Below, in pieces: positions 18,893 to 39,938 of a stretch of DNA of 64,000 bases. A program made the position numbers and the translations under genes. Each line of letters opens with the position of its first letter. Positions within the stretch are counted from its first letter, which is position 1. The stretch comes from a virus, in IMG/VR virus record IMGVR_UViG_3300010370_002417, positions 13,259 through 77,258 of that record; one strand, 5' to 3'. The notes under the pieces are model-generated. The model ran no database searches and had not been told where the DNA came from. It was given only the letters and a program-made list of their open reading frames with translations.

Positions 18893-19261
18893 TCATCCTC
18901 TAGTTATTTTCAACACAGCATCCAACTGACGCTGACAGACTTCGCGCCTGTTAGGCCAGTGAATCCATTCTTTATCTGCAGTCTTCAATAGATTATTCAG
19001 CAGCGGAACTACGATAGCTTCAAGCTGTCTGATCTTATCGCGCATTTCTGTTTCTGTAGCACTGGAAGCTACGTTGTTCTGCATTCTGCTAAACTCAACA
19101 AGAATGCGATCTAGCTTTTCATCAACAGAATCGAAGCGATCGTCGAGATCGATATTGATAACTGGCTGCTCAACAGGAGCTGGCTTCGCGAAGTCTGGCT
19201 CATCGACTGCGGAGAACCCATAGTCTTGTCCAAGATATTCAGCAGGGATATTCACAGTCAT
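18893..19261 (-). CDS. Conserved hypothetical protein downstream of gp43
   Basis: DYGFSAVDE...PLLNNL....KEWIHWPNR motif; 4-nt overlap with gp43. Confidence 0.7.
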   Translation of the reverse strand: MTVNIPAEYLGQDYGFSAVDEPDFAKPAPVEQPVINIDLDDRFDSVDEKLDRILVEFSRMQNNVASSATETEMRDKIRQLEAIVVPLLNNLLKTADKEWIHWPNRREVCQRQLDAVLKITRG

Positions 19262-24606: not shown

Positions 24607-24998
24607 ACCTTTCCACCTTTGTCGAGTGCTACCTCGATCATGGTCAACTGTTCATCGGTTAAGACTCGCAATGCCTGCTCCGCCTTAGCACGACCATAGC
24701 CGAAATACTCCATGATCATTTCGACGGTTGCGTCGGGGGCTTGCTTTTTCCATTTGGCATACCTCTTACGCTTCCGCAAGCTATTTAGTAAATACTCGTA
24801 CTGCGGCTTATGCTCGAGATGTGGGCGCACATTCATCTCGTTGGCGTAAAGGATTGAGTCCTGAAAGTAAGACAGCGAACGATTAGTCAGATAGGGCTTG
24901 TAGCCTTTCTCTGCGAGTTCATCGTTCGCTGTCCCACGCATCAGATTCTTTTTAGTATGGCTTACACTATCGACATAGACAAAGGGATTACTCATCAA
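24603..24998 (-). CDS. 62: Clamp loader small subunit gp62
   Basis: Y.PYLTNRSLSYF.D.ILYANEMN...RKRKR..KW motif; upstream of regA. Confidence 0.9.
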   Translation of the reverse strand: MMSNPFVYVDSVSHTKKNLMRGTANDELAEKGYKPYLTNRSLSYFQDSILYANEMNVRPHLEHKPQYEYLLNSLRKRKRYAKWKKQAPDATVEMIMEYFGYGRAKAEQALRVLTDEQLTMIEVALDKGGKV

Positions 24999-25287
24999 AG
25001 AATCTATCTAAAGTTGCTCCAACGCGATCGTTCTTTTCTTTATCGCGGCGCATCTTAGTCTGTGCATCTCTACACTCGACGCATATGCGTTCAGAAGGAT
25101 CGAGCACGTTGTATGGTTTCGTTTTGGTGTAATCGGGCGATCTCATATAGAAGCTTGTTAGCGATCTGTGATTATAACATTTTGGGCAGAACTTGCTTCT
25201 AACTGTGGTCGTCCCGTATATAGTATTCGTTGTCAGTTGTTCAGGAGTCTTTCGCCATACAACTGGTATATTCGCTTCTCTTCTCAT
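24988..25287 (-). CDS. Hypothetical Zn-finger protein
   Basis: CPKC...FY...CVEC. Confidence 0.6.
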   Translation of the reverse strand: MRREANIPVVWRKTPEQLTTNTIYGTTTVRSKFCPKCYNHRSLTSFYMRSPDYTKTKPYNVLDPSERICVECRDAQTKMRRDKEKNDRVGATLDRFFDE

Positions 25288-25595
25288 TATTTAATCCTCT
25301 TGATCTCGGGTCCGCAGAGGTAAATAATGGCTTCGTTGACTTCATCCAATGTGATGTCACCAAACCATTCAAATCCGCCTGCCCTCAAAAGTTTATCCCT
25401 GAAATAACGATGGAGCACCTTGTCCGATCCACGGGCGCGCTCTCCGATATTCCAGATAGCTCTAGTATATAATGGTTCAAATGTTTTGTCAAACTCTATT
25501 CTGCGTTTCTCAACGCCTGATAGAGATTCGGTTTCACCAATCTTCAGGCGGTTAGCCTGAAGATCAGTGTCGGTAGCAAGACAGTAGATATACAT
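25287..25595 (-). CDS. GIY-YIG-like (T5orf172-type) protein
   Basis: YIYC...LKIGET...R...D..LH..F.....EWF pattern. Confidence 0.6.
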   Translation of the reverse strand: MYIYCLATDTDLQANRLKIGETESLSGVEKRRIEFDKTFEPLYTRAIWNIGERARGSDKVLHRYFRDKLLRAGGFEWFGDITLDEVNEAIIYLCGPEIKRIK

Positions 25596-25596
25596 C

Positions 25597-26529
25597 TTAC
25601 TGTTTCCGATAGGGCAGAAACTCGTAAGTGATTTCCATTGAGCAATATTTCAGCCAATCATTGATAGCCTTGATAGTGCTCGTCTTGAGCTTGGTGTCGC
25701 TGTAGTTCTTGAAGTGAAATACAATATGCGCCCTGTTATAATTCAGCGCATTTCCAACAGCCTTGCCTAGCGTCTCGTAGATCTTATCGCGAGTAACAAC
25801 GGCCCAAGTGACTGCAACGCTCTCGTCGTTCTGTTCGAACTCCTCTTCAAGCTCCTGCTTGATGAGATTCATTTCACTGGCAGAATATTGTCTAAAGTTG
25901 AACTTGGAGCGAAGCTCTTCTTCTTTAAGATCATTCTTAGCTTCCATGATCAGCTTACCAATCGTGGAGCTCTTCATCTGCACAGAAGCAGAAATGGCAG
26001 ATTGATAGTCAGCCGTATCCACATTGATACCACTGATGATATCTTTACGAATCATATCGCGCACATCAGACTTGGTTGTCTTGTTATGTACAACTTCTAT
26101 ACGATTCATCACAAGCGCAATTTGAACCAGCACTCGTTCACGATCATTAGCATCTTCGGGAAGACGATTTTCGGGGATAACAACGATCTTGGCGTCAGTC
26201 AGTCCCTTGACCAGCTTCTTCTCAAAGGCTTCAACATAAGCGGCGCATGTGTGATTGCCGTTAATGAGTCGAAGCGAGCCATCGACGCGGCGCTCAACAA
26301 GAATCGGATCAGCGAAATCCATGTGACCAAAATATCGAATACGATCGATGATTTCAGCCAATACATCAACATTGATTTTGTTTGATCGAACTTGAAGAAC
26401 GGAAGTTTCGTCTGTATACCATTTAAGGACCTGCTTAAAAGCAGCCTTAGAAATGGCGAACTTGCCATCTTTATAATCTGCGACGATAGATTCAGCCACG
26501 CGCAGGTGTTCATTATGCGTCATACCCAT
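25597..26529 (-). CDS. Hypothetical protein with ParB/Srx-like motif
   Basis: PILV...RLINGNHT.AA resembles the ParB-like D/NGxHR box; has its own promoter and RBS. Confidence 0.55.
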   Translation of the reverse strand: MGMTHNEHLRVAESIVADYKDGKFAISKAAFKQVLKWYTDETSVLQVRSNKINVDVLAEIIDRIRYFGHMDFADPILVERRVDGSLRLINGNHTCAAYVEAFEKKLVKGLTDAKIVVIPENRLPEDANDRERVLVQIALVMNRIEVVHNKTTKSDVRDMIRKDIISGINVDTADYQSAISASVQMKSSTIGKLIMEAKNDLKEEELRSKFNFRQYSASEMNLIKQELEEEFEQNDESVAVTWAVVTRDKIYETLGKAVGNALNYNRAHIVFHFKNYSDTKLKTSTIKAINDWLKYCSMEITYEFLPYRKQ

Positions 26530-26617
26530 TTGCTTTCTCCTCTAAAGGTGCCCGATCTGTCACAGCGACTATTCGGCTACAGCCTTTTTCTAAGTGAGCA
26601 AATCACTCACTATCTTT

Positions 26618-26646
26618 ATAGTACCACGATGGCACCAGATTGTCAA
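26618..26646 (-). promoter_or_regulatory. Sigma70 promoter of the inserted cassette
   Basis: TTGACA-17-TACTAT. Confidence 0.7.
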
Positions 26647-29844: not shown

Positions 29845-31044
29845 TCAGAAAGAGATTTCCTGAGCGTTCTCCGCTGCTTTGTCAGTTTCTGCAGCAGGAG
29901 TCTCGGTGACGGGATTGATCGTAGGATCAACCTTTGAATAGAGATCAAGGAATGCAGTCTTGGTCTCTTCGTCGAATCTGTTGATGCACAGGCGAATAGA
30001 CTTCGCACGATCGCCAATCATACGATACGTCTGTGCAATATGAACAAGGCGGCGAGTTGAAATAAGCTCGTCAATCGCACCCTCGGTGAAAGTCTTGCGA
30101 ATGATCTCAGACCAAACAACAAGATGCTCAACGAACGCCTTATCATCTTCAGTCATTGTATCATCTGACAAGTAATTTGTCAAGATCTTTTTCTCGATGG
30201 CAGGAGTCGGATACTCTTGCTCAATCGTGATCGGGAAACGCTCGAGCCACGCATCGTCGAGCATCGTAGCAGCAACGTATCGACCGTCGTCGGAGCCGCG
30301 ACCCTTAGTGTTAGCCGTAACAACCACGTTGAAGCCAGGAGTGGCTGTGACGATCTCGCCAGTCTTCTTCATGAAGTAAGGCTTGCCTTCGAGAATGCCC
30401 TGGAGACACATAGCCTTGCCAGGATCAGCGCGGTCAGCTTCGTCGATCAGCAAGAGAGCGCCGATCTCCATCGCGCGAAGGACAGGACCCTTCATGAACT
30501 TAGTCTCGCCGTCGATGAGACGGAAGCCGCCGATGAGATCGTCTTCGTCAGTCTCGCGTGACATTTGCACACGGATCATCGGACGCTTGACCTTGGCGCA
30601 AACCTGCTCGACCATGAACGTCTTGCCGTTGCCAGAATGACCTGAGATAAACACGGGGAAGAACTGACCAGACGAGATAATCTTCTCGATCATCTTGAAC
30701 TCGCCAAACGGCACATAGTGCTTGTCCTTAGCCGGAATCTGCGCATAGTCATGCTCGGAAACAACGTTCGGATCGAACTTCTTGGCGCTCACAGGATTCT
30801 CGCGACGGATAGGAACGATATCAGCCGCCATGGCTGCAATGGACTTAGAGTCGCCTTCGTATCGAGGCAGACGATACTGTCCGCGATCGTGACGATACTT
30901 GGGCTTGTAGAGCCAGTGGTGATCTGCGTTGGCTAGATTGTGCTGACGAGCCAGCTCGACCAGCTCAGCGACAGCCACAACAGCTTCGCTGCCAAATGTA
31001 TCAGTAGCCAACTCGAGGAACTTGCTTTGATTCGCCTTCAACAT
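29845..31044 (-). CDS. MoxR/CobS-like AAA+ ATPase
   Basis: GHSGNGKT, LLIDEAD, ATANTKGRG, ERF and ISTRRLV motifs. Confidence 0.9.
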   Translation of the reverse strand: MLKANQSKFLELATDTFGSEAVVAVAELVELARQHNLANADHHWLYKPKYRHDRGQYRLPRYEGDSKSIAAMAADIVPIRRENPVSAKKFDPNVVSEHDYAQIPAKDKHYVPFGEFKMIEKIISSGQFFPVFISGHSGNGKTFMVEQVCAKVKRPMIRVQMSRETDEDDLIGGFRLIDGETKFMKGPVLRAMEIGALLLIDEADRADPGKAMCLQGILEGKPYFMKKTGEIVTATPGFNVVVTANTKGRGSDDGRYVAATMLDDAWLERFPITIEQEYPTPAIEKKILTNYLSDDTMTEDDKAFVEHLVVWSEIIRKTFTEGAIDELISTRRLVHIAQTYRMIGDRAKSIRLCINRFDEETKTAFLDLYSKVDPTINPVTETPAAETDKAAENAQEISF

Positions 31045-31071
31045 GATCGTCTCACCTTTCATCATATATGT

Positions 31072-31100
31072 ATTGTATCACAGGCGTCAGTGGTTGTCAA
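31072..31100 (-). promoter_or_regulatory. Early promoter with ATGATGAAAGG leader
   Basis: TTGACA-17-TACAAT-6 nt-ATGATGAAAGG. Confidence 0.8.
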
Positions 31101-31101
31101 G

Positions 31102-31254
31102 TCACATTCGTTCGATAGTCGGTTTGCCAACAAGCCCAGTAGAATTGATAAGGGCTCGCATGAATGCAAAGGCATCCTTGAGATAGCGGAACGTGGCAGA
31201 CTCGTCCGTGAGCAGTTTATCTTCGCCCTTGAGCGTATATGTTACCTTGAACAT
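31102..31254 (-). CDS. Hypothetical 50-aa protein (not in ORF track)
   Basis: Translated by hand: MFKVTYTLKGEDK...GKPTIERM. GAGGAG RBS and its own TTGACA-17-TATACT promoter (31281-31309). Confidence 0.65.
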   Translation of the reverse strand: MFKVTYTLKGEDKLLTDESATFRYLKDAFAFMRALINSTGLVGKPTIERM

Positions 31255-31305
31255 TTTGCCTTCTCCTCTACTCTAAGATAAGTATATATGGTCTAGGTTC
31301 TATTG

Positions 31306-33570
31306 TCAAGCGGCAATCTTCTCGATGAATCGAGAAAGAACCATACGAGATCCGCCACGCTTGTTCTGGGCGTTGATGAACGCTTTGGCTAGTTGCCCCT
31401 TCTTCAAGTCCTTGGCTTCTTCGAACTTAGCCTGCTGTGCCTGAAGATTCGCGCCACCCTGGATAAGATAGAACTCATGGAAGTTCAGCATCTTAGGGAT
31501 GATCAGACTTCTTTCTTTCTTATATTTGGCTAAGGTCTTATCATATTGTTCTGCAGGCGTGTATCTTGAGATGGCGTTACGAACTTCGTATGTGTTGTTC
31601 GTAATGTAGAAGCCAACGAAGTTAGAATCTGTGGCATCACGAACGATGCGCGCAAACATAGCCGTGACATCCGAATAAGCATTGAAGTTCATTGCTGTCT
31701 GCATTCGCGTTTCTTCGTCGATGAAGATGCGCGTGACATTACTCCACGTTGGCATAAGATTCATCATACGTTCGACGCCCTTTGTATCTGTGACGATCGA
31801 ATGATTGCTCTCGCCATCCGTGATGCAGATGAAATTCATAATCTGCACGTTCTTTTCTTTGCGGAACTTATTGATCAAGTCGCGACACACAAGCAACGAA
31901 TCATTGAGCGGCGTACCGCCAAGACCAAAGAATCTAAGACCATAAAAGCCAAAGATGCTATCCATCATCGAATTTTGGCCATTGAGCGTAAAGCCGTTCT
32001 TGATTGCGAACTCGTTGCTATGATAGTCGAACTTCGAGGCTACCGCAAGAAGAATGCCAATCATTTCGTTGAATTCTTTGAGATTCATCTTCTCGTTGAA
32101 TAGTTCGAGAAGATCGAACTCTTTGTCGGGGAACACGAAGTCCTTGTTGAGGCGTTGTTGGATTCTGCGCTTCATCTCTCCGCGCGCGCCAGAGCGAGCG
32201 AGCTTGGTCTTAGTCCAGACCTGATCATTGCCAGAAATAACGCTGGTGAAGCCATAGAAACGATGCGGGATACCAACGCGGCGGCAGAACATAGCCAACG
32301 AGATCAGCTGATCCATCGCGCCACGATAATTCTGCGACATAGAGCCAGACATATCAAGGATCGCAACAACGCCGTGATTCTTGCCAGTAGGCTCAATGGT
32401 CAGTCGCTTGAAGATATCATCGTTGAACTTGTAGCTGTGGAGCTTGTTCACGTCGATCACGCCAGTCTTAGCCTGCTTAGAGCGAGAGTAAGCGATAGCC
32501 GCTTTCTTCATCTCGAACTCTTTGACCATATAATTGATAGCCGAGTTGTTCTCACGGCGGAACTTGGTAGTCAGCCAGCCACAATAAGATCTGAACAGAT
32601 ACGGATTCTTGGCTCGCGCCAAGTCACTATCCACCAGCTCTAAGACTTCGCGATAGCCATAGGTGAACGGCTCGTATGCTAGATCTTTGGGAAAGTAGAT
32701 ATATTTGAACTCGCGGCTCGAAAGACTAGGATCGAGGAGCTGTTCCATACGTTCGCTCATCGCGCGATCAGTCTTAGCCTCGTCTACATTATCTTCTTGC
32801 TCTTTCGTAGTGGCACTATCAATAGAACCGTTGTTGCCAACGCCGTTTTCATCGTGGTCATCAGCTTCGCCTTCGCCTTCGCCGCTATCGTCTTCGATTT
32901 CGTCGAATTCTTCGCCTTCTTCACCCAGTTGGGCAAAAGACTCAGAAGTCTGCTCCAGCTCTTCTTCTTTCTTAGCCTTGACATACTCAAGGATATCGCG
33001 GGCAAGATTCTCCACGTCTTCGAATGTGATAGTCTGTTCAGCTCGCTGCACGAACATACGTTCTTCTTCACTGAACTTGACGCGAACAATCGTGCCCAAT
33101 TTGAAGTAGAGATTGATACGATCGATCAGCGATAGGCTGTCAAGATCGTCGTTCTTGATCTCGAAGAAATCGTTCTCGTGCAGCCACTTGTAGCCGTCGA
33201 TGAAATCGCGGCGCGATCCAGGGAACTTGGTCTTGATCTTGCGCTCGATGCGAGCATCTTCTATGACGTTGAGATAGCCCTGGAATGTATGCGCGATGCG
33301 CTTGGACTCTTTTTCTTCTTCTATCTTGTCGATAGCGCCTTTCCATTCCGTGGCGTCAGTATATAGAGCGTGGCCAACCTCATGCAGCGCAAGGAAATGA
33401 TACAGATACTCTGGCATGTCCTTCCACATAGGAAGAGCCAGGACACGATTCTTCACGTCGAAATAAGCCGTTTTGATGGGCTTGTGTTCGACCATAATAT
33501 TTTCTGCCGCCAACAATTTAGCCAGCTTATCTAGCGAGCCAGGCTTGATTAGATTCGTGGTGTCAGCCAT
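31306..33570 (-). CDS. CobT-like VWA protein with N-terminal HExxH domain
   Basis: LHEVGHALYT, NVIEDARIE, acidic linker, MIDAS DMSGSM...GGTPL...ITDGE; promoter TTGACA-17-TATCAT at 33595-33623. Confidence 0.88.
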   Translation of the reverse strand: MADTTNLIKPGSLDKLAKLLAAENIMVEHKPIKTAYFDVKNRVLALPMWKDMPEYLYHFLALHEVGHALYTDATEWKGAIDKIEEEKESKRIAHTFQGYLNVIEDARIERKIKTKFPGSRRDFIDGYKWLHENDFFEIKNDDLDSLSLIDRINLYFKLGTIVRVKFSEEERMFVQRAEQTITFEDVENLARDILEYVKAKKEEELEQTSESFAQLGEEGEEFDEIEDDSGEGEGEADDHDENGVGNNGSIDSATTKEQEDNVDEAKTDRAMSERMEQLLDPSLSSREFKYIYFPKDLAYEPFTYGYREVLELVDSDLARAKNPYLFRSYCGWLTTKFRRENNSAINYMVKEFEMKKAAIAYSRSKQAKTGVIDVNKLHSYKFNDDIFKRLTIEPTGKNHGVVAILDMSGSMSQNYRGAMDQLISLAMFCRRVGIPHRFYGFTSVISGNDQVWTKTKLARSGARGEMKRRIQQRLNKDFVFPDKEFDLLELFNEKMNLKEFNEMIGILLAVASKFDYHSNEFAIKNGFTLNGQNSMMDSIFGFYGLRFFGLGGTPLNDSLLVCRDLINKFRKEKNVQIMNFICITDGESNHSIVTDTKGVERMMNLMPTWSNVTRIFIDEETRMQTAMNFNAYSDVTAMFARIVRDATDSNFVGFYITNNTYEVRNAISRYTPAEQYDKTLAKYKKERSLIIPKMLNFHEFYLIQGGANLQAQQAKFEEAKDLKKGQLAKAFINAQNKRGGSRMVLSRFIEKIAA

Positions 33571-33626
33571 AGTCATCTCCGTCACTATTTACTAATGATA
33601 GCGGGTTGGCGGCGAGTTGTCAAGGG

Positions 33627-33833
33627 TCAATGCGCCTCAAAATAGCGGATATCCGCTTCCGTGGTATACGGATCCTCAGCTTGGATCTGGCGAATCAGCT
33701 CTTCGCGGCGCTCGCGCAAGGCATCGATCTGTTTCAGCAGATGATCAGCCAGCGGATAGGCACCGAATTTCATAGCCATGTCATAATTAGACTCCAGCTC
33801 GTCGAGGGTGGTGCGAATCTGATTGATGTTCAT
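33627..33833 (-). CDS. Small early hypothetical protein
   Basis: Own promoter (33858-33886) and AAAGG RBS. Confidence 0.7.
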   Translation of the reverse strand: MNINQIRTTLDELESNYDMAMKFGAYPLADHLLKQIDALRERREELIRQIQAEDPYTTEADIRYFEAH

Positions 33834-33857
33834 TTCGTTACCTTTCATCATATGTTC

Positions 33858-33886
33858 ATTGTAGTAAGTTGGCGGGCAATTGTCAA
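33858..33886 (-). promoter_or_regulatory. Early promoter
   Basis: TTGACA-17-TACAAT-GAACAT-ATGATGAAAGG. Confidence 0.8.
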
Positions 33887-34212
33887 GCGCCCGTCCAGCG
33901 AACGTTCGACAAGGCCTGCAGCACATTGCCACGGGCGAAGTTCTTCGCGGGGGCGCGCCAGCTAGCCGCCTTGAGAATGTCGCCGCGCTTGAACTTGCCA
34001 TCGTCGTCCAGCATAATGAAAGAATGAACGCCAGTCTGCGGACCGGTGATCACCTTGATGAACTTACGATGGATCTCGTATCGAATCGAGGCGTCGAACT
34101 CTTGGATCATTTCAGCGCGAGTGGGTGACATCGGGCTATATCCAGCATAGTCAGCCTTGATGGCTTGAATGTAACGTTCAACGCCAGCCTTGAGGTCAGA
34201 AGCGATAGTCAT
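33883..34212 (-). CDS. Conserved early hypothetical protein
   Basis: KFIKV....GVHSFI......GDILKAASWRAPAKNFARGNV, a widespread phage family. Confidence 0.8.
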   Translation of the reverse strand: MTIASDLKAGVERYIQAIKADYAGYSPMSPTRAEMIQEFDASIRYEIHRKFIKVITGPQTGVHSFIMLDDDGKFKRGDILKAASWRAPAKNFARGNVLQALSNVRWTGA

Positions 34213-34236
34213 GCCATTTCCTTTCATCATATGTTC

Positions 34237-34265
34237 ATTGTACACGGTGGCAGGCTGGTTGTCAA
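34237..34265 (-). promoter_or_regulatory. Early promoter
   Basis: TTGACA-17-TACAAT-GAACAT-ATGATGAAAGG. Confidence 0.8.
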
Positions 34266-34468
34266 TACCGTTCCGACCACCGATCGTTTTCTTCGTCTTC
34301 GTCGAGAAAGAATTCCGCCAGCTGACCCAAGAAAATGATCAGGTCTCTGGTATCGCCCTTCTTAATGTTTTCGCTCGGCCAATCAAAGCCGGCTTTGACC
34401 GCCGAAGGCTTGAGCATAAGTATGGCTTCGATCAAGTCGTTGCGGTTGGTTCGGGTCTTGTAACTCAT
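34262..34468 (-). CDS. Small early hypothetical protein
   Basis: Own promoter (34493-34521) and AAAGGA RBS. Confidence 0.7.
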   Translation of the reverse strand: MSYKTRTNRNDLIEAILMLKPSAVKAGFDWPSENIKKGDTRDLIIFLGQLAEFFLDEDEENDRWSERY

Positions 34469-34492
34469 GTGGCTTCCTTTCATCACTTTTTC

Positions 34493-34521
34493 ATTGTATG
34501 GGGTATCGGGTTGGTTGTCAA
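34493..34521 (-). promoter_or_regulatory. Early promoter
   Basis: TTGACA-17-TACAAT-GAAAAA-GTGATGAAAGG. Confidence 0.8.
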
Positions 34522-34610
34522 ACGAAAAAACCCCCTGTAAAAACAGAGGGTTATAGCTAAGTCACTGATATTATGGGGAAAACTTTTTTGTAAAATCTTG
34601 GTTACGATCG

Positions 34611-35294
34611 TTAAGGATTTTTTAACGCAATAAAGCCGGTAAAGGCATGATTTTGCCAGAACGAATCGACTACCTTGAAGCCGGCGGCTTTACACATATC
34701 CACGATTTCCTGCCTGGTGCTAGGCTTAGTCATGTGGCGTAGTTGTCGTTCCTTATCCATAATGTCTTCTGTCGTAAATGTCTTGCGCTTGAAATCGTAG
34801 TAGGTAAATGTGCGGATCTCGTGTACGCGCACGTTCTCTGGCATAGTCTTTTCTGCGAACACGAACGCGCCTCCAGGTAGCAAACCGTCGTGAACTTTAC
34901 TTACAACTTCTTTGCGATCCTTGAACGACATAAACTGTAATGTAAAGATTGAAGTGACATAAGAACAGTTTCTAAAGTCATAGTTTAAGACATCGCCGCG
35001 ATAGTATGTCAAATTCTCATATTGATTTTCGTCAGCGATGAATCCCTTCCAAAAGTCTTCTTCGATCTCGATACCTTCATAGATGGCGTCTGGAGCAAAT
35101 GTGTTCTGTGCGATCATGCTCTTAAGCATCTTGCCAGTAGAACAACCAATATCAACGACAGAGGTATTGTTCTCGACGAAATACTGCGAGATGTCAACGA
35201 CGTCTTGCCAAAGATGACCATATCCACGGATCGATCCGTCAATGTGATTGTCAAAGCCTTCTTCGCGTGTAGCAAACGTGAACTTACCTGTCAT
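34611..35294 (-). CDS. cmoA: CmoA-like carboxy-SAM synthase / SAM-dependent methyltransferase fold
   Basis: FDNHIDGSIRGY, VDIGCSTG, SIFTLQF, L.PGG.FVFAEK, FKR and AGF..VDSFWQ...F.G.IALK follow CmoA; ATGA overlap with the MTase. Confidence 0.8.
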   Translation of the reverse strand: MTGKFTFATREEGFDNHIDGSIRGYGHLWQDVVDISQYFVENNTSVVDIGCSTGKMLKSMIAQNTFAPDAIYEGIEIEEDFWKGFIADENQYENLTYYRGDVLNYDFRNCSYVTSIFTLQFMSFKDRKEVVSKVHDGLLPGGAFVFAEKTMPENVRVHEIRTFTYYDFKRKTFTTEDIMDKERQLRHMTKPSTRQEIVDMCKAAGFKVVDSFWQNHAFTGFIALKNP

Positions 35295-36430
35295 GACAAT
35301 TCCTTGTAGGGCTTCAAAATGTTTTCGTAAATGCAAGTAGAAAGGGCGCACATCATCTTTGGTGCAACCATGCGACCGATGCGTTCAGCCTGCTGATCGA
35401 ACGTACCAGTCAATTCATAATCATCAGGTAAGCTCATGATACGCTTCATTTCTTTGATTGTCAACTTTCTATTCGCCGCGTAGTGCATAACACCACTGGC
35501 GCTTCTTTGCTGACCCATCTGTGTGAGCGTAGGAGATGGCTTGTTGGGAGCTGGTCGTTTCATATTGAAGCAAGACGTCTTACCGTTGACTGGTCCTGGC
35601 TTCAATACTTTGTGAGGATTGAAAGGCATTGTTTCCACGAATTTCTTCTGGAAACTATTTTCGCAGAAGTCCAGGAGCATTTGAACTTCTGCTGGATCAT
35701 TATCGATCCCTTCTATTGCGCTGGCGATTGATACACCATCGCTTGTCGTAGGCATTGGAAATACTCGACTCGCGAGTTGATACTCCTCCAGCCCCAGAGC
35801 CGCGAACACATCGTTCCTGACTCCCACGAAGAATGTTCTCATACGACTCTGGGGCACCCCAAACTTCGAAGCATCCATGACTTGATACACCATCTTATAG
35901 CCTGGTGTAATGCGTTCGAAGCCTGTTACGAAATCTCTTAGTTTCTCAATAGCAGCTCGGGCTGTGATTCCCTCGACGTTTTCTGCTATAATGACTTTAG
36001 GTTGGATATCCTCTGCAATCCTTATATATTCCAGGAACAAGTCTTCAATGTTCTTTACAGTCTTGCCATCGGAATATTTTTTCTCTCTGTTCCAACCTTT
36101 CTTCCCTTTACCAGAAGATGAAAATGCAGAACACGGTGGAGATCCATCAAGAATATCAAGCTCGCCTGGATTTAGATTACCGATCTCGAGCAGATCTTTT
36201 CCTTTTATATTCTTGATATCTCCAAGGATTACCTTCGTGTCGGGAAAGTTGCGCGAATAGGTAGCCACTGCTTCCTCAACGAACTCGTTGATCGCGACAA
36301 CTTTCCCGCCTGCAAGCCGATATCCAGTTGAAGATCCGCCACCGCCTGCGAATGTTGAGACCACCGTAAACAGTTCGCGCGCGGACGAGCGTCGCACATC
36401 TTCAATAGTATATGGCTGATAGTTGCTCAC
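35291..36430 (-). CDS. C5 cytosine DNA methyltransferase, candidate carboxymethyltransferase
   Basis: Motifs I FAGGGG, IV GSPPC, VI ENV, VIII PQSR.R and IX RKLT..E..R; motif X reads IGRMV instead of GNxV. Confidence 0.88.
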   Translation of the reverse strand: MSNYQPYTIEDVRRSSARELFTVVSTFAGGGGSSTGYRLAGGKVVAINEFVEEAVATYSRNFPDTKVILGDIKNIKGKDLLEIGNLNPGELDILDGSPPCSAFSSSGKGKKGWNREKKYSDGKTVKNIEDLFLEYIRIAEDIQPKVIIAENVEGITARAAIEKLRDFVTGFERITPGYKMVYQVMDASKFGVPQSRMRTFFVGVRNDVFAALGLEEYQLASRVFPMPTTSDGVSIASAIEGIDNDPAEVQMLLDFCENSFQKKFVETMPFNPHKVLKPGPVNGKTSCFNMKRPAPNKPSPTLTQMGQQRSASGVMHYAANRKLTIKEMKRIMSLPDDYELTGTFDQQAERIGRMVAPKMMCALSTCIYENILKPYKELS

Positions 36431-36957
36431 GCAGTCCTCATTCTTCGTTCAGCTTTGTTCTTGAAGTTCTTCGCTTGTTCTAGATGAAACCGATTAGCTC
36501 TTTGCTGGAATGTGATTCCATTGAGATGATCGTACTCGTGCTGAAACACGCGAGCAGTATATCCTTCATAACGTGTAGTGCCAGCTTCTCCATCCCATCC
36601 ACGATAGCGGACACGAATACCGCGCGATCTTTTGATTTTGATGAACATCCCAGGATACGTCAGACATCCTTCTTCGTATATCACTTTTTCTTCATCGTAG
36701 TCTAGGATGATTGGATTGAATACGCCAATGATGCTTGCTGGATCGCTGAAATTGCCAATAACAAAAACGCGAGTCATGATTCCTAGCTGACAAGCAGAAA
36801 GACCGACACCTTTGTTGGCTATCATCGTATCGCGCAGAAGCTCGTACAACTCTTTGGCGTTGTAGTGAGTTCCGTCTTCTGTCGTGTATCCCGCTTCAAA
36901 GTCAAACTCTGGGCAGATTTGCGAAAGCCTTGGATCGTTACCTTTTAGAAGTTCCAT
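36427..36957 (-). CDS. def: Peptide deformylase
   Basis: GVGLSACQLG, EGCLT and QHEYDHLNG motifs. Confidence 0.95.
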   Translation of the reverse strand: MELLKGNDPRLSQICPEFDFEAGYTTEDGTHYNAKELYELLRDTMIANKGVGLSACQLGIMTRVFVIGNFSDPASIIGVFNPIILDYDEEKVIYEEGCLTYPGMFIKIKRSRGIRVRYRGWDGEAGTTRYEGYTARVFQHEYDHLNGITFQQRANRFHLEQAKNFKNKAERRMRTA

Positions 36958-38660
36958 TACACTATCCTACTAAAATTCTTCTGCTTTGTAAAGCGAATAA
37001 CGTTGCTAAACTTATCGTGTAGAACATCACCCTTATGCGAGATGACAAATATATTCGTTTGTTCCAAATTATGAATGAGCTTCAGAAACTCATCACAGCC
37101 ATTTGCATCAAGCGACGCGTCGAATACTTCGTCTAGAATCAGAAGATTCGTGTTGGCGCTGTTCTTCATGCGAGCGATTGAACGCCACGTGAAAAGAAGC
37201 GCAAGATCGATACGCATCTTTTCGCCTTCACTGAAAGAATCGTAAGTAAAGTCGTCGCGATGGCGCGATAGGATCTTTTCTTCGAACGACTCGTTCAACT
37301 CGAACTTCACGAAGAAGTCCATGGCGGCGAGGTATTTATTCACCAAAGTATTGATGACTGGTACATACTGTTTTATGATGCGAGACTTGATGCCGCTATC
37401 GCGAAGGATAACAGTAGCAAGATCGAACATTTCACGCTCTTCGAGAATAACATTCTTCTTTCCTAGAAGTGCAGTATAGTCTTCGTTCAATTGTTTGATG
37501 ACAGATTCGTTGAACGCTTCTGTCTTTTTCTCGGCGTCATTTATTTCTTTAGTCCAAAGAGAGATTTCTTTTTGATGGGTCTTGATGGAAGACTGTAGCT
37601 CCCGTAGAACGTTTTGCTTTGCACTAATCTCACGTTGTATCCGCGAGATAGAATCCAACCGATTCTCCGCTTCGCGTAAGTTGTCTTGTAACGACGCGAG
37701 CGCGATATCAACATCTGTGATAATCTTTTCTTTCTCATCGATTTTCTCACATTTTATAGTTTCGTCAATATTCTGCGTGCATGTAGGACATTCATCGTTA
37801 TCGTGATAGAACTTGATAGTTTTGCGCGCATTACTCTTTTTCTTCTCAAGATTAGATTCGAGATTGAGTATCTTTTGAATTCTTGCGCTTACAGTTTCTT
37901 TGTCGTCGATTTGCGTAAGAAGATCATTGATTTCAGCTTCAACAGTAGCAGCTTCCGCTTCGTCACGCAGGAACGATGCGTTAGCTGTTTCAATACGCTT
38001 ACGATATTCATCGATCTTCTCGCTCTTTTCTTGCGCCAAGTCGTTGCGCAACTTCTCTTGCAGTTTGATGCTTTCGCTTGTGTTGGATATATCGTTTTCG
38101 TTGAGCTTATATGTTTCGCGATTAGTAGCAACGCGATCTTTGAGCAACAAAGCCATCGAGGAAAAGACGCGGATATCTAACAAATCCTCGATGACTTCGC
38201 GTCGCACATTGGTTGTAAGTTGCATGAACGGAACGAAAGAAGAAGATCCCAGGATAACTATCTGGGTGAACGACTTCATGCTCAACTTAAGAATGTTCTT
38301 CTCAAGCATTTCCTGATAGTCGCGCATAGCTGCGTCTTGATCGATCAGAGATCCGTCTTCATAGATCTCAAACAGATTTGGCTTGATACCACGCTTGATT
38401 ATGTACTGATGATCGTGTGTGTTGAACTCAATCTCAACAACAACATCGCGTCCATTGACCGAGTTGATAAGTTGATCTTTCTTGATCTTACGGAATGGCT
38501 TGCCATACAAACCAAAACACAATGCGTCGAGCATTGTAGATTTGCCAGCGCCGTTCTCACCAACGATGAGCGTAGAGTCGTTCTCGTTTAGCTTGATTTC
38601 TGTAAATGCGTTGCCAGTCGAAAGGAAGTTCTTCCAGCGCACCTTTTTGAAATGAATCAT
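36957..38660 (-). CDS. 46: Recombination ATPase gp46 (Rad50/SbcC-like)
   Basis: GENGAGKS, CPTC hook, FSEGEK, LILDE and ISH motifs. Confidence 0.96.
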   Translation of the reverse strand: MIHFKKVRWKNFLSTGNAFTEIKLNENDSTLIVGENGAGKSTMLDALCFGLYGKPFRKIKKDQLINSVNGRDVVVEIEFNTHDHQYIIKRGIKPNLFEIYEDGSLIDQDAAMRDYQEMLEKNILKLSMKSFTQIVILGSSSFVPFMQLTTNVRREVIEDLLDIRVFSSMALLLKDRVATNRETYKLNENDISNTSESIKLQEKLRNDLAQEKSEKIDEYRKRIETANASFLRDEAEAATVEAEINDLLTQIDDKETVSARIQKILNLESNLEKKKSNARKTIKFYHDNDECPTCTQNIDETIKCEKIDEKEKIITDVDIALASLQDNLREAENRLDSISRIQREISAKQNVLRELQSSIKTHQKEISLWTKEINDAEKKTEAFNESVIKQLNEDYTALLGKKNVILEEREMFDLATVILRDSGIKSRIIKQYVPVINTLVNKYLAAMDFFVKFELNESFEEKILSRHRDDFTYDSFSEGEKMRIDLALLFTWRSIARMKNSANTNLLILDEVFDASLDANGCDEFLKLIHNLEQTNIFVISHKGDVLHDKFSNVIRFTKQKNFSRIV

Positions 38661-38845
38661 TTATTCCCAATAATATCACAAGGATGATCTTGGTCATCCC
38701 ATCTGTATCGACCAACAAGATTTAAGAGAAGGCGCGTCTTAGTTTCAGCGCATTCAAATATCTGTACGCCTTGGCGACGTTCAATATAAATGTATTCTTT
38801 GCCTTCACGACTTATATAGGTTTCGCCAGCAACGAATGTCATCAC
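38657..38845 (-). CDS. Small hypothetical protein
   Basis: 62-aa ORF with 4-nt overlaps on both sides. Confidence 0.6.
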   Translation of the reverse strand: MMTFVAGETYISREGKEYIYIERRQGVQIFECAETKTRLLLNLVGRYRWDDQDHPCDIIGNK

Positions 38846-39903
38846 TCAGTTTCCATTTGAAGAGCTTCATTATATAACGAACGCATGAGCTTGTCAAGTT
38901 TTTCATTATCTACATTAGACTCAATCGTCTTGATATATTTCGACAGAATCGTAAGAGTATCTTCAGCCTCATTCAATAATTCTTGCTCGTCGATAGAATC
39001 CATGTTGCGATGATCTTCGACGATAGTAACTTCAATTGGGCTGGCTTCGTAGAGCTTCGTAGTAAACAAATCAAACGTGAACGGATTATCTTTGTTAGAT
39101 ACAATGAGTTTTACGTATGCGCCAGCATACTTACTGAAGTCGCGTTCTAGGATTTCTTCTGTCGTCTTATCTTTATCGTTGTACCACACTTTGCGAAACA
39201 TCTTGTAAGGATTTTCTATAAACGCCAACTCACGAGTTTCAGTATCGAAGATATGGAATCCCTTAGGGTCATCGTAGTCGCTCCAAGTAAATTCAGCATG
39301 ACTACCAAGATAATGGATATTCCCACTAGAGGAACGATGATGATAATGACCAGAGCATACCAAATCAAACCTATCAAAAATAGACCGGTCATCACCGTGA
39401 CTGACAGGACTGCCTCGATACATTTCGAAGCCAGCGATTTCAAGATGTCCCATGCAGATTTGAGCATTGGTCTTCCTTATGAGATTCATCGCGTGTTCAC
39501 GATTGTCTTCGCAAATCCACGGCATAAACAAAATCTTGACACCATCGAACTCGACTTCCGTCGCTTCTTCATACAGAATGAAGTCGTCTAGATACGCTTC
39601 TCTAATGGCGTTGACTGAATTCGTATTCTTGTAATAGGTGTCGTGGTTTCCGAGGGTGAGATGTGGCTTGATGCCTCTTGCGTGTAGAGGTGAAATAAAA
39701 TCCTCACGCAGGCGTCGCGCTGTATAGATGTTAATGTATTTACGGCGATCAACAAGATCACCGAGATGGATAACAGTAGAGATGCTATTATCATCGATAT
39801 ACGGAAAGAAAACATTATCTAGAAACTTCTTGTTGTTGTCAAGGAACGCAATCTGATCGTTGCGCACACCCCAGTGGGTGTCAGTGATAATAGCAATTTT
39901 CAT
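38842..39903 (-). CDS. 47: Recombination nuclease gp47 (Mre11/SbcD-like)
   Basis: DTHWG, GDLVD, GNHD and SGHYH motifs. Confidence 0.95.
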   Translation of the reverse strand: MKIAIITDTHWGVRNDQIAFLDNNKKFLDNVFFPYIDDNSISTVIHLGDLVDRRKYINIYTARRLREDFISPLHARGIKPHLTLGNHDTYYKNTNSVNAIREAYLDDFILYEEATEVEFDGVKILFMPWICEDNREHAMNLIRKTNAQICMGHLEIAGFEMYRGSPVSHGDDRSIFDRFDLVCSGHYHHRSSSGNIHYLGSHAEFTWSDYDDPKGFHIFDTETRELAFIENPYKMFRKVWYNDKDKTTEEILERDFSKYAGAYVKLIVSNKDNPFTFDLFTTKLYEASPIEVTIVEDHRNMDSIDEQELLNEAEDTLTILSKYIKTIESNVDNEKLDKLMRSLYNEALQMETE

Positions 39904-39909
39904 AATGTA

Positions 39910-39938
39910 ATTCTATCACGCTACCTTAGAGTTGTCAA
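39910..39938 (-). promoter_or_regulatory. Sigma70 promoter, predicted leaderless, for gp47
   Basis: TTGACA-17-TAGAAT-6 nt-ATG. Confidence 0.7.

Follow-up and report, generated by a model that had tools for sequence, protein, structure and literature searches.

The stretch of DNA examined here (the window, 64,000 nucleotides, bases 13259-77258 of the 77,258-bp IMG/VR record IMGVR_UViG_3300010370_002417, whose genome completeness is estimated at 37%) carries on its minus strand two overlapping genes, cmoX and cmoA, whose products resemble a DNA cytosine C5-methyltransferase and a synthase of carboxy-S-adenosylmethionine (carboxy-SAM, Cx-SAM). The contig belongs to an uncultured T4-like myovirus of 44.7% GC. 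From the letters of this stretch an earlier note had proposed Cx-SAM synthesis by the phage itself, with carboxymethylation of cytosine at C5 in its DNA, and had suspected that natural 5-carboxymethylcytosine (5cxmC) in phages was already on record. This is indeed the case, as 5cxmC and the CmoA/CmoX/CmoY pathway were published in December 2025 for the Synechococcus phage S-B43 (Yang et al., Nature Communications; PMC12783734), and the novelty of the present locus is accordingly low.

In S-B43, CmoA (SpCmoA) makes Cx-SAM from S-adenosylmethionine (SAM) and prephenate at about ten times the rate of the E. coli enzyme (EcCmoA), and CmoX (SpCmoX) transfers the carboxymethyl group to cytosine C5 at GC sites, using Cx-SAM only and not SAM. 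Arg350 of SpCmoX, which a structural overlay equates with Asn304 of M.HhaI, contacts the carboxylate of Cx-SAM, and the R350N variant is inactive. CmoY, an asparagine-synthase-like and AMP-forming amide ligase, converts 5cxmC into a glycine amide (5-glycylcarboxymethylcytosine), and the restriction enzyme HhaI is blocked by the modification (PMC12783734). The same study collected 5,615 CmoX candidates, defined by SPPC plus the Arg, from IMG/VR, UniProt and MGnify; CmoA was found on 4,257 of their contigs, the ligase on 2,251, and a ParBc protein of unexplained role on 1,660 (PMC12783734). Judged by its sequence, the window locus is an additional, uncharacterised member of this published system, ligase-less within the contig.

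The cmoX and cmoA genes

The coordinates of the two genes and of the features discussed with them are collected in Table 1. For the first gene of the pair the earlier note had recognised a C5-methyltransferase with the motifs FAGGGG, PPC and ENV, and had read its motif X as ERIGRMVAP with an Arg where an Asn normally sits; both readings are borne out. The 379-amino-acid (aa) product matches TIGR00675 as well as the DNA_methylase family of Pfam, and has FAGGGG at residue 27, SPPC at 97-100, ENV at 150 and GRMV at 352, the last within the C-terminal ERIGRMVAP. When it was compared by phmmer with PDB chains, SpCmoX (8YF3) was matched over residues 6-373 with an E value of 3.7e-103, while the runner-up, M.HaeIII, reached 1.5e-18; window CmoX and SpCmoX are 51% identical. 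A MAFFT alignment pairs the Cx-SAM-binding and catalytic residues F25, E47, F48, D69, C98 and R350 of SpCmoX with F27, E49, F50, D71, C100 and R353 of the window protein, in which all the Cx-SAM contacts named in PMC12783734 are kept. The window SPPC falls on S95-C98 of SpCmoX, the alignment through motifs IX and X has no gap, and R353 stands opposite R350 without a gap in the phmmer and MAFFT alignments alike. Arg353 is no chance substitution, being invariant across 12 related sequences (58-100% identical), and its counterpart in SpCmoX, Arg350, has a defined function. An AlphaFold2 model of window CmoX, built on a shallow 12-sequence alignment of IMG/VR relatives, gave a mean predicted local distance difference test score (pLDDT) of 47.5, too poor to place Arg353; the residue is predicted to lie beside the cofactor on the basis of the 51% identity to the 8YF3 crystal structure.

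In the variable stretch that separates the catalytic core from motif IX (residues 211-315), identity to SpCmoX is 41%, compared with 55% in the N-terminal core, and since this region is the one concerned with target recognition, the GC specificity of SpCmoX is not transferable to the window enzyme. No second C5-methylase was found in the 77-kb contig. Among homologues from isolated phages, the motif-X residue is Leu in the Melnitz phages, Arg in Moraxella phage Mcat8 and Met in Flavobacterium phages, as read in Methylophilales phage Melnitz, Mcat8 and Flavobacterium phage FPSV-S2 (on the stretches analysed, L032 2995-4212, L033 2887-3957 and L034 2884-3951, respectively). When the phage collection was searched for CmoA, no Methylophilales or Moraxella phage was among the matches listed, so that the Mcat8 enzyme may need Cx-SAM from its host.

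The overlap ATGA, in which the stop codon of cmoX shares bases with the start codon of cmoA, is present as the earlier note had described it, and the CmoA-like character of the second gene is confirmed. Among NCBIfam families the 227-aa product matches TIGR00740 best (89.9 bits, 1.9e-25, spanning residues 3-225 of 227), ahead of a runner-up family at 1.7e-06; it also matches PHROG 4752 at 2.2e-54. Its closest structures are E. coli CmoA (4GEK and 4IWN, about 1e-18) and H. influenzae YecO, and it shares 51% identity with SpCmoA, 55% with the homologue of Synechococcus phage S-CRM01 and 27% with EcCmoA. A longer, GTG-started form of the gene (34611-35351) was considered and dropped, because the ATG at 35294 has a Shine-Dalgarno sequence (AAGGA, 7 nt ahead of it) and fits the N-termini of homologues. 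A search for CmoB (PF08003), the partner of CmoA in tRNA modification, had no match in the 77-kb contig, and its absence from the window, as reported by the earlier note, thus holds across the contig.

Table 1. Features of the cmo locus and of related sites, with coordinates in the window
Feature	Position	Strand	Basis
cmoX, DNA cytosine C5-carboxymethyltransferase homologue, 379 aa	35291..36430	-	PF00145 3.7e-51; 8YF3 E 3.7e-103; GTG start
Arg353 codon CGC, motif-X position (Asn in SAM-dependent C5-methylases)	35372..35374	-	read from sequence; aligns with SpCmoX Arg350
Catalytic Cys100 codon TGT, SPPC motif	36131..36133	-	sequence; aligns with SpCmoX Cys98
cmoA, carboxy-SAM synthase homologue, 227 aa	34611..35294	-	TIGR00740 best NCBIfam match; ATG at 35294
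ATGA overlap, cmoX TGA stop with cmoA ATG	35291..35294 (+ strand TCAT)	-	sequence
Peptide deformylase (def), directly upstream of cmoX, translationally coupled	36427..36957	-	PF01327 4.8e-32
Terminator-like hairpin, 10-bp stem then T run, about 60 nt past cmoA stop	34529..34552	-	sequence
gp46-like SMC_N/AAA_23 ATPase	36957-38660		Pfam
gp47-like Metallophos protein	38842-39903		Pfam
Empty cmoY site, gp43 (DNA polymerase)/orf122 junction	19070..19261	-	tblastx synteny and tblastn

Proposed mechanism, rival readings and the ligase

A scan of IMG/VR returned 15 related loci whose CmoX is 58-99% identical to that of the window, and cmoA was present beside cmoX in all five related contigs searched for it. 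The nearest near-complete relative, G001 (157.6 kb, 90% complete, CmoX 92% identical), is nearly gene-for-gene colinear with the window; G002 is 139 kb long and 78% complete, and G003 is a complete genome of 155,201 bp with terminal repeats. The IMG/VR identifiers of the close relatives were not found in three supplementary files of PMC12783734, and a megablast comparison of isolated phages with the window gave no nucleotide-level match.

We consider it probable, with a probability of roughly 0.85, that cmoX and cmoA constitute a two-gene module of the CmoA/CmoX type for DNA cytosine carboxymethylation in this uncultured T4-like myovirus, both enzymatic activities being assigned by analogy with the S-B43 work. 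CmoA would make Cx-SAM from SAM and prephenate of the host. In CmoX, Cys100 would attack C6 of the target cytosine and the C5 carbanion would then attack the cofactor, as in normal C5-methyltransferase chemistry, and with Arg353 paired to the carboxylate of the cofactor a carboxymethyl instead of a methyl group would be transferred. The product would be 5cxmC at short target sites in the phage DNA, and the phage would probably gain protection from restriction and from other DNA-targeting defences. Since cmoX is translationally coupled both to cmoA and to def, and the pair stands last in an early/middle unit of replication genes, the modification would accompany replication. The proposal of the earlier note is thus supported, as the window pair are homologues of the S-B43 pair with an identity of about 51% for each protein.

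Several observations weigh against this assignment or against its simplest form. The window proteins are about 50% identical to the assayed ones, and their activity is taken from homology. The 89.9 bits of the window CmoA fall under the TIGR00740 cutoff of 193.3 bits, and so do the 115.6 bits of the assayed SpCmoA. Arg199 of E. coli CmoA is the carboxylate-binding residue for Cx-SAM (PMC3663124), and the corresponding column holds Glu in all three phage CmoAs compared (window, SpCmoA and S-CRM01). One residue past that column stands an Arg in the window protein or a Lys in the other two, and four residues past it an invariant Arg; as the biochemically active SpCmoA has the identical pattern, the feature is possibly shifted and not lost, and the phage CmoA clade may bind the carboxylate in a different mode. 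The remaining difficulties concern the end product. S-B43 virion DNA contains the glycine amide as its sole form, free 5cxmC was not detected in it, and 5cxmC is termed a handle (PMC12783734); cmoY occurs in 6 of the 15 related contigs; and the contig represents only about 37% of the genome, so that a ligase or some other hypermodifier could be encoded outside it.

In a rival reading 5cxmC would be only an intermediate, turned into an amide as in S-B43 by a ligase encoded in the unsequenced 60% or so of the genome, or by a non-homologous enzyme in the contig. The cmoY orthologues of the six related contigs include those of G001, G007 and G008, three contigs with a CmoX 92-94% identical to the window protein, and in those phages cmoY lies 16 kb from cmoX, which means that adjacency is not required. 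Within the 77-kb contig, however, there is no match to PF00733 and no homologue of SpCmoY, G001 CmoY or G003 CmoY, and Pfam and PHROG scans of about 60 contig open reading frames (ORFs) returned no ligase-like, ATP-grasp or amidotransferase family and no alternative hypermodifier. The view of the earlier note that no obvious downstream hypermodifier is visible can therefore be extended from the window to the whole contig, with the limit that the contig covers about 37% of the genome and that some close relatives carry CmoY. The site itself also argues against a ligase, as G001 has gp43, cmoY (269 aa, 54% identical to SpCmoY) and orf122 in succession, whereas in the window, G002 and G005 gp43 is followed straight by orf122. 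No PF00733 match was found in the 139 kb of G002, and the complete genome of the S-CRM01 isolate has no CmoY homologue. We regard an amidated end product in this phage as possible but doubtful. Given an active system, the balance tips slightly towards 5cxmC itself as the final mark, because no CmoY-type ligase is found in 77 kb and the syntenic cmoY site is empty. Two further explanations leave the carboxymethyl mark out or make it secondary. Database annotation names the homologues tRNA methyltransferase and DNA methylase, and the translation-related genes def and regA are neighbours, which would suit an ordinary SAM-dependent methylase producing 5-methylcytosine beside a CmoA that serves host tRNA cmo5U34 through the CmoB of the host and so tunes translation. 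This account is extremely improbable, since SpCmoX takes Cx-SAM and not SAM and the Arg that replaces Asn is kept in window CmoX, the contig has no CmoB, and cmoA, whose translation is coupled to that of the methylase, is inherited together with it in all the relatives examined (5/5). It has also been raised, as a possibility only and beside the high rate of SpCmoA, that CmoA mainly depletes SAM and blunts SAM-dependent host defences (PMC12783734). Such a role is compatible with DNA carboxymethylation, which would then be secondary, but nothing in the sequence supports it, and the tight coupling of cmoA to cmoX argues that cofactor supply is the selected role; we hold it to be very improbable as the chief function.

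The window represents the minimal two-gene form of the carboxymethylation module within a lineage where cmoY comes and goes. The complete relative G003 (L015 8620-15167) has def, cmoY, cmoX1, cmoX2, cmoA and a CobT-like gene in this order, that is, the anchor genes of the window together with the ligase and a second CmoX. Between its two tandem CmoX paralogues identity is 62% over the whole length and 43% in the variable region, and both have the motif-X Arg; this suggests two target specificities served by one CmoA. A capsule-synthesis gene and a GT8-like gene at the far left of the contig were considered as hypermodifiers and set aside, as they lie about 42 kb off and nothing ties them to the locus.

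Neighbouring genes and the phage

The start of cmoX overlaps the stop codon of def in the sequence GTGA (36427-36430), preceded by GAGGA. Pfam matches on the genes upstream agree with the earlier description of the pair as the end of a 47-46-def run, and def is conserved in related phages as the upstream anchor, also where, as in G003, cmoY and a second cmoX stand between it and cmoA. Strong TTGACA-N17-TAnAAT sites are found upstream at 39938 and 38897, and these promoter-like sites together with the hairpin after cmoA indicate that cmoX and cmoA close an early/middle replication-gene unit. A further promoter-like sequence, TTGACA-N17-TATCAT (11/12 matches, 35436-35464, minus strand), is found within the 3' portion of cmoX, some 140 nt ahead of the cmoA start, and might permit expression of cmoA without that of cmoX.

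Beyond the hairpin, the minus-strand interval 33595-34521 between cmoA and the CobT-like gene contains four promoter-like sites close to the consensus (TTGACA-N17-TACAAT or TATCAT), located at 34521, 34265, 33886 and 33623, each preceding a small ORF with a similar MMKG-type N-terminus. In G003 the CobT-like gene comes right after cmoA, and the small ORFs are therefore lineage-specific early genes. Downstream of the module, at 29845-33585 on the minus strand, lie a CobS-like AAA_5 ATPase (406 aa) and a 759-aa protein of PHROG 459, annotated as a peptidase and CobT-like.

A three-gene insert (24988-26646, minus strand) separates gp44 from gp62. It encodes a 310-aa ParB/Sulfiredoxin (Srx)-like protein (25597-26529), a weakly T5orf172-like protein of 102 aa and a zinc-ribbon-like protein of 99 aa, the genes of the first two covering 24988-26529. 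The 310-aa protein has no Pfam or PHROG match, and a search of the contig for ParB_N (PF02195) was negative; in the ESM Atlas it falls among ParB/Sulfiredoxin-like proteins (feature score 0.95), and its structural template modelling (TM) score against ParB_N clusters is about 0.5. At the corresponding site G002, G005 and G015 have divergent homologues with 31-41% identity, and a wider scan of viral contigs found the cassette in 7 IMG/VR loci, all of this lineage. None of the six cmoY-bearing related contigs has the ParB/Srx-like protein, and of the seven contigs that span both sites by contig coordinates four have cmoY only and three the ParB-like gene only, although the phages are related to one another. 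Phages with a CmoX 90-94% identical to that of the window fall on both sides, G001, G007 and G008 with cmoY, and the window, G002 and G005 without it and with the ParB/Srx-like and T5orf172-like cassette. The mutual exclusivity of cmoY and the ParB-like gene is suggestive at best, and the cassette may simply be a mobile nuclease cassette. It echoes the unexplained ParBc association in the survey of the S-B43 study (PMC12783734). One might suppose that the cmoY-less phages package free 5cxmC as the terminal base and that the function of the ParB/Srx-like protein is linked to the carboxymethyl mark, for instance if it activated the carboxylate in an alternative ATP-dependent way or acted as a nuclease able to tell the marks apart; we think this combination unlikely. 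To our knowledge, free 5cxmC as a terminal base has so far been seen in no native virion.

The contig carries the T4-like head genes gp23, scaffold protein and gp21 protease, and the replication and recombination genes UvsW, gp47, gp46, gp45, gp44, gp62, gp43, UvsX and a gp41-like helicase; regA and hsp20 are also among its core genes. To the left of the window, contig bases 1-13300 encode a PstS-like phosphate-binding protein, a peroxiredoxin, a Bax1-I family membrane protein, an outer-membrane beta-barrel protein, a capsule-synthesis-like protein, a weak GT8-like protein and a class II (B12-dependent) ribonucleotide reductase, followed by a primase. These auxiliary genes are host-like, and they fit an aquatic Gram-negative host.

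Significance and comparison with known systems

The gp23 protein is 63-66% identical to gp23 of Pelagibacter phage Mosig, Stenotrophomonas phage DLP_6, Methylophilales phage Melnitz and cyanophages. With the Pelagibacter, Stenotrophomonas and Methylophilales phages nearest, the module is thus also found in a T4-type lineage that is not cyanophage-like. As the relatives vary by gain and loss of cmoY, and one complete genome has a second tandem CmoX, they provide a natural comparison set for what the ligase step contributes. A phage without cmoY is the obvious place to seek native DNA with unamidated 5cxmC, the form undetected in S-B43, and a CmoX with a diverged target-recognition region could broaden the sequence specificities available for carboxymethyl labelling of DNA.

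The bacterial CmoA/CmoB pathway to tRNA cmo5U34 (E. coli b1870/b1871; structures 4GEK and 4IWN) shares with the window the Cx-SAM synthase fold and gives the best family match, but it differs in that its acceptor is tRNA, whereas in the phage system it is DNA; in addition, the window CmoA is 27% identical to EcCmoA, has no CmoB beside it and holds Glu in the Arg199 column. From the side of the methyltransferase, a parallel is drawn in PMC12783734 with the engineered neomorphic carboxymethyltransferase M.MpeI N374K, in which, as described there, a positive residue in place of the motif-X Asn enables a C5-methylase to work with Cx-SAM. By that description the enzyme differs from window CmoX in having Lys and not Arg at this position, in being engineered, in its CG specificity and in its reliance on CmoA of the host.

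Closer to the window stands Synechococcus phage S-CRM01 (cmoA SCRM01_149c and cmoX SCRM01_148c, both uncharacterised), which likewise has the two-gene form, the motif-X Arg and no CmoY homologue in its complete genome, with 50% identity in CmoX and 55% in CmoA. Its genes are arranged as cmoA followed by cmoX and are inserted between gp62 and regA, not after def. The characterised S-B43 system shares with the window full-length homologues of CmoX and CmoA, each about 51% identical, as well as the SPPC motif, the Arg of motif X and all the reported Cx-SAM contacts; both phages are T4-like myoviruses without CmoB, and in both the genes form a single operon. The order is cmoA-cmoY-cmoX in S-B43 and cmoX-cmoA in the window, the former with CmoY and the latter with none in the contig. 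The S-B43 module lies near the primase-helicase gene, whereas that of the window follows gp46-def, and window CmoX has an 8-residue deletion after SPPC and a target-recognition region that is 41% identical to its S-B43 counterpart.

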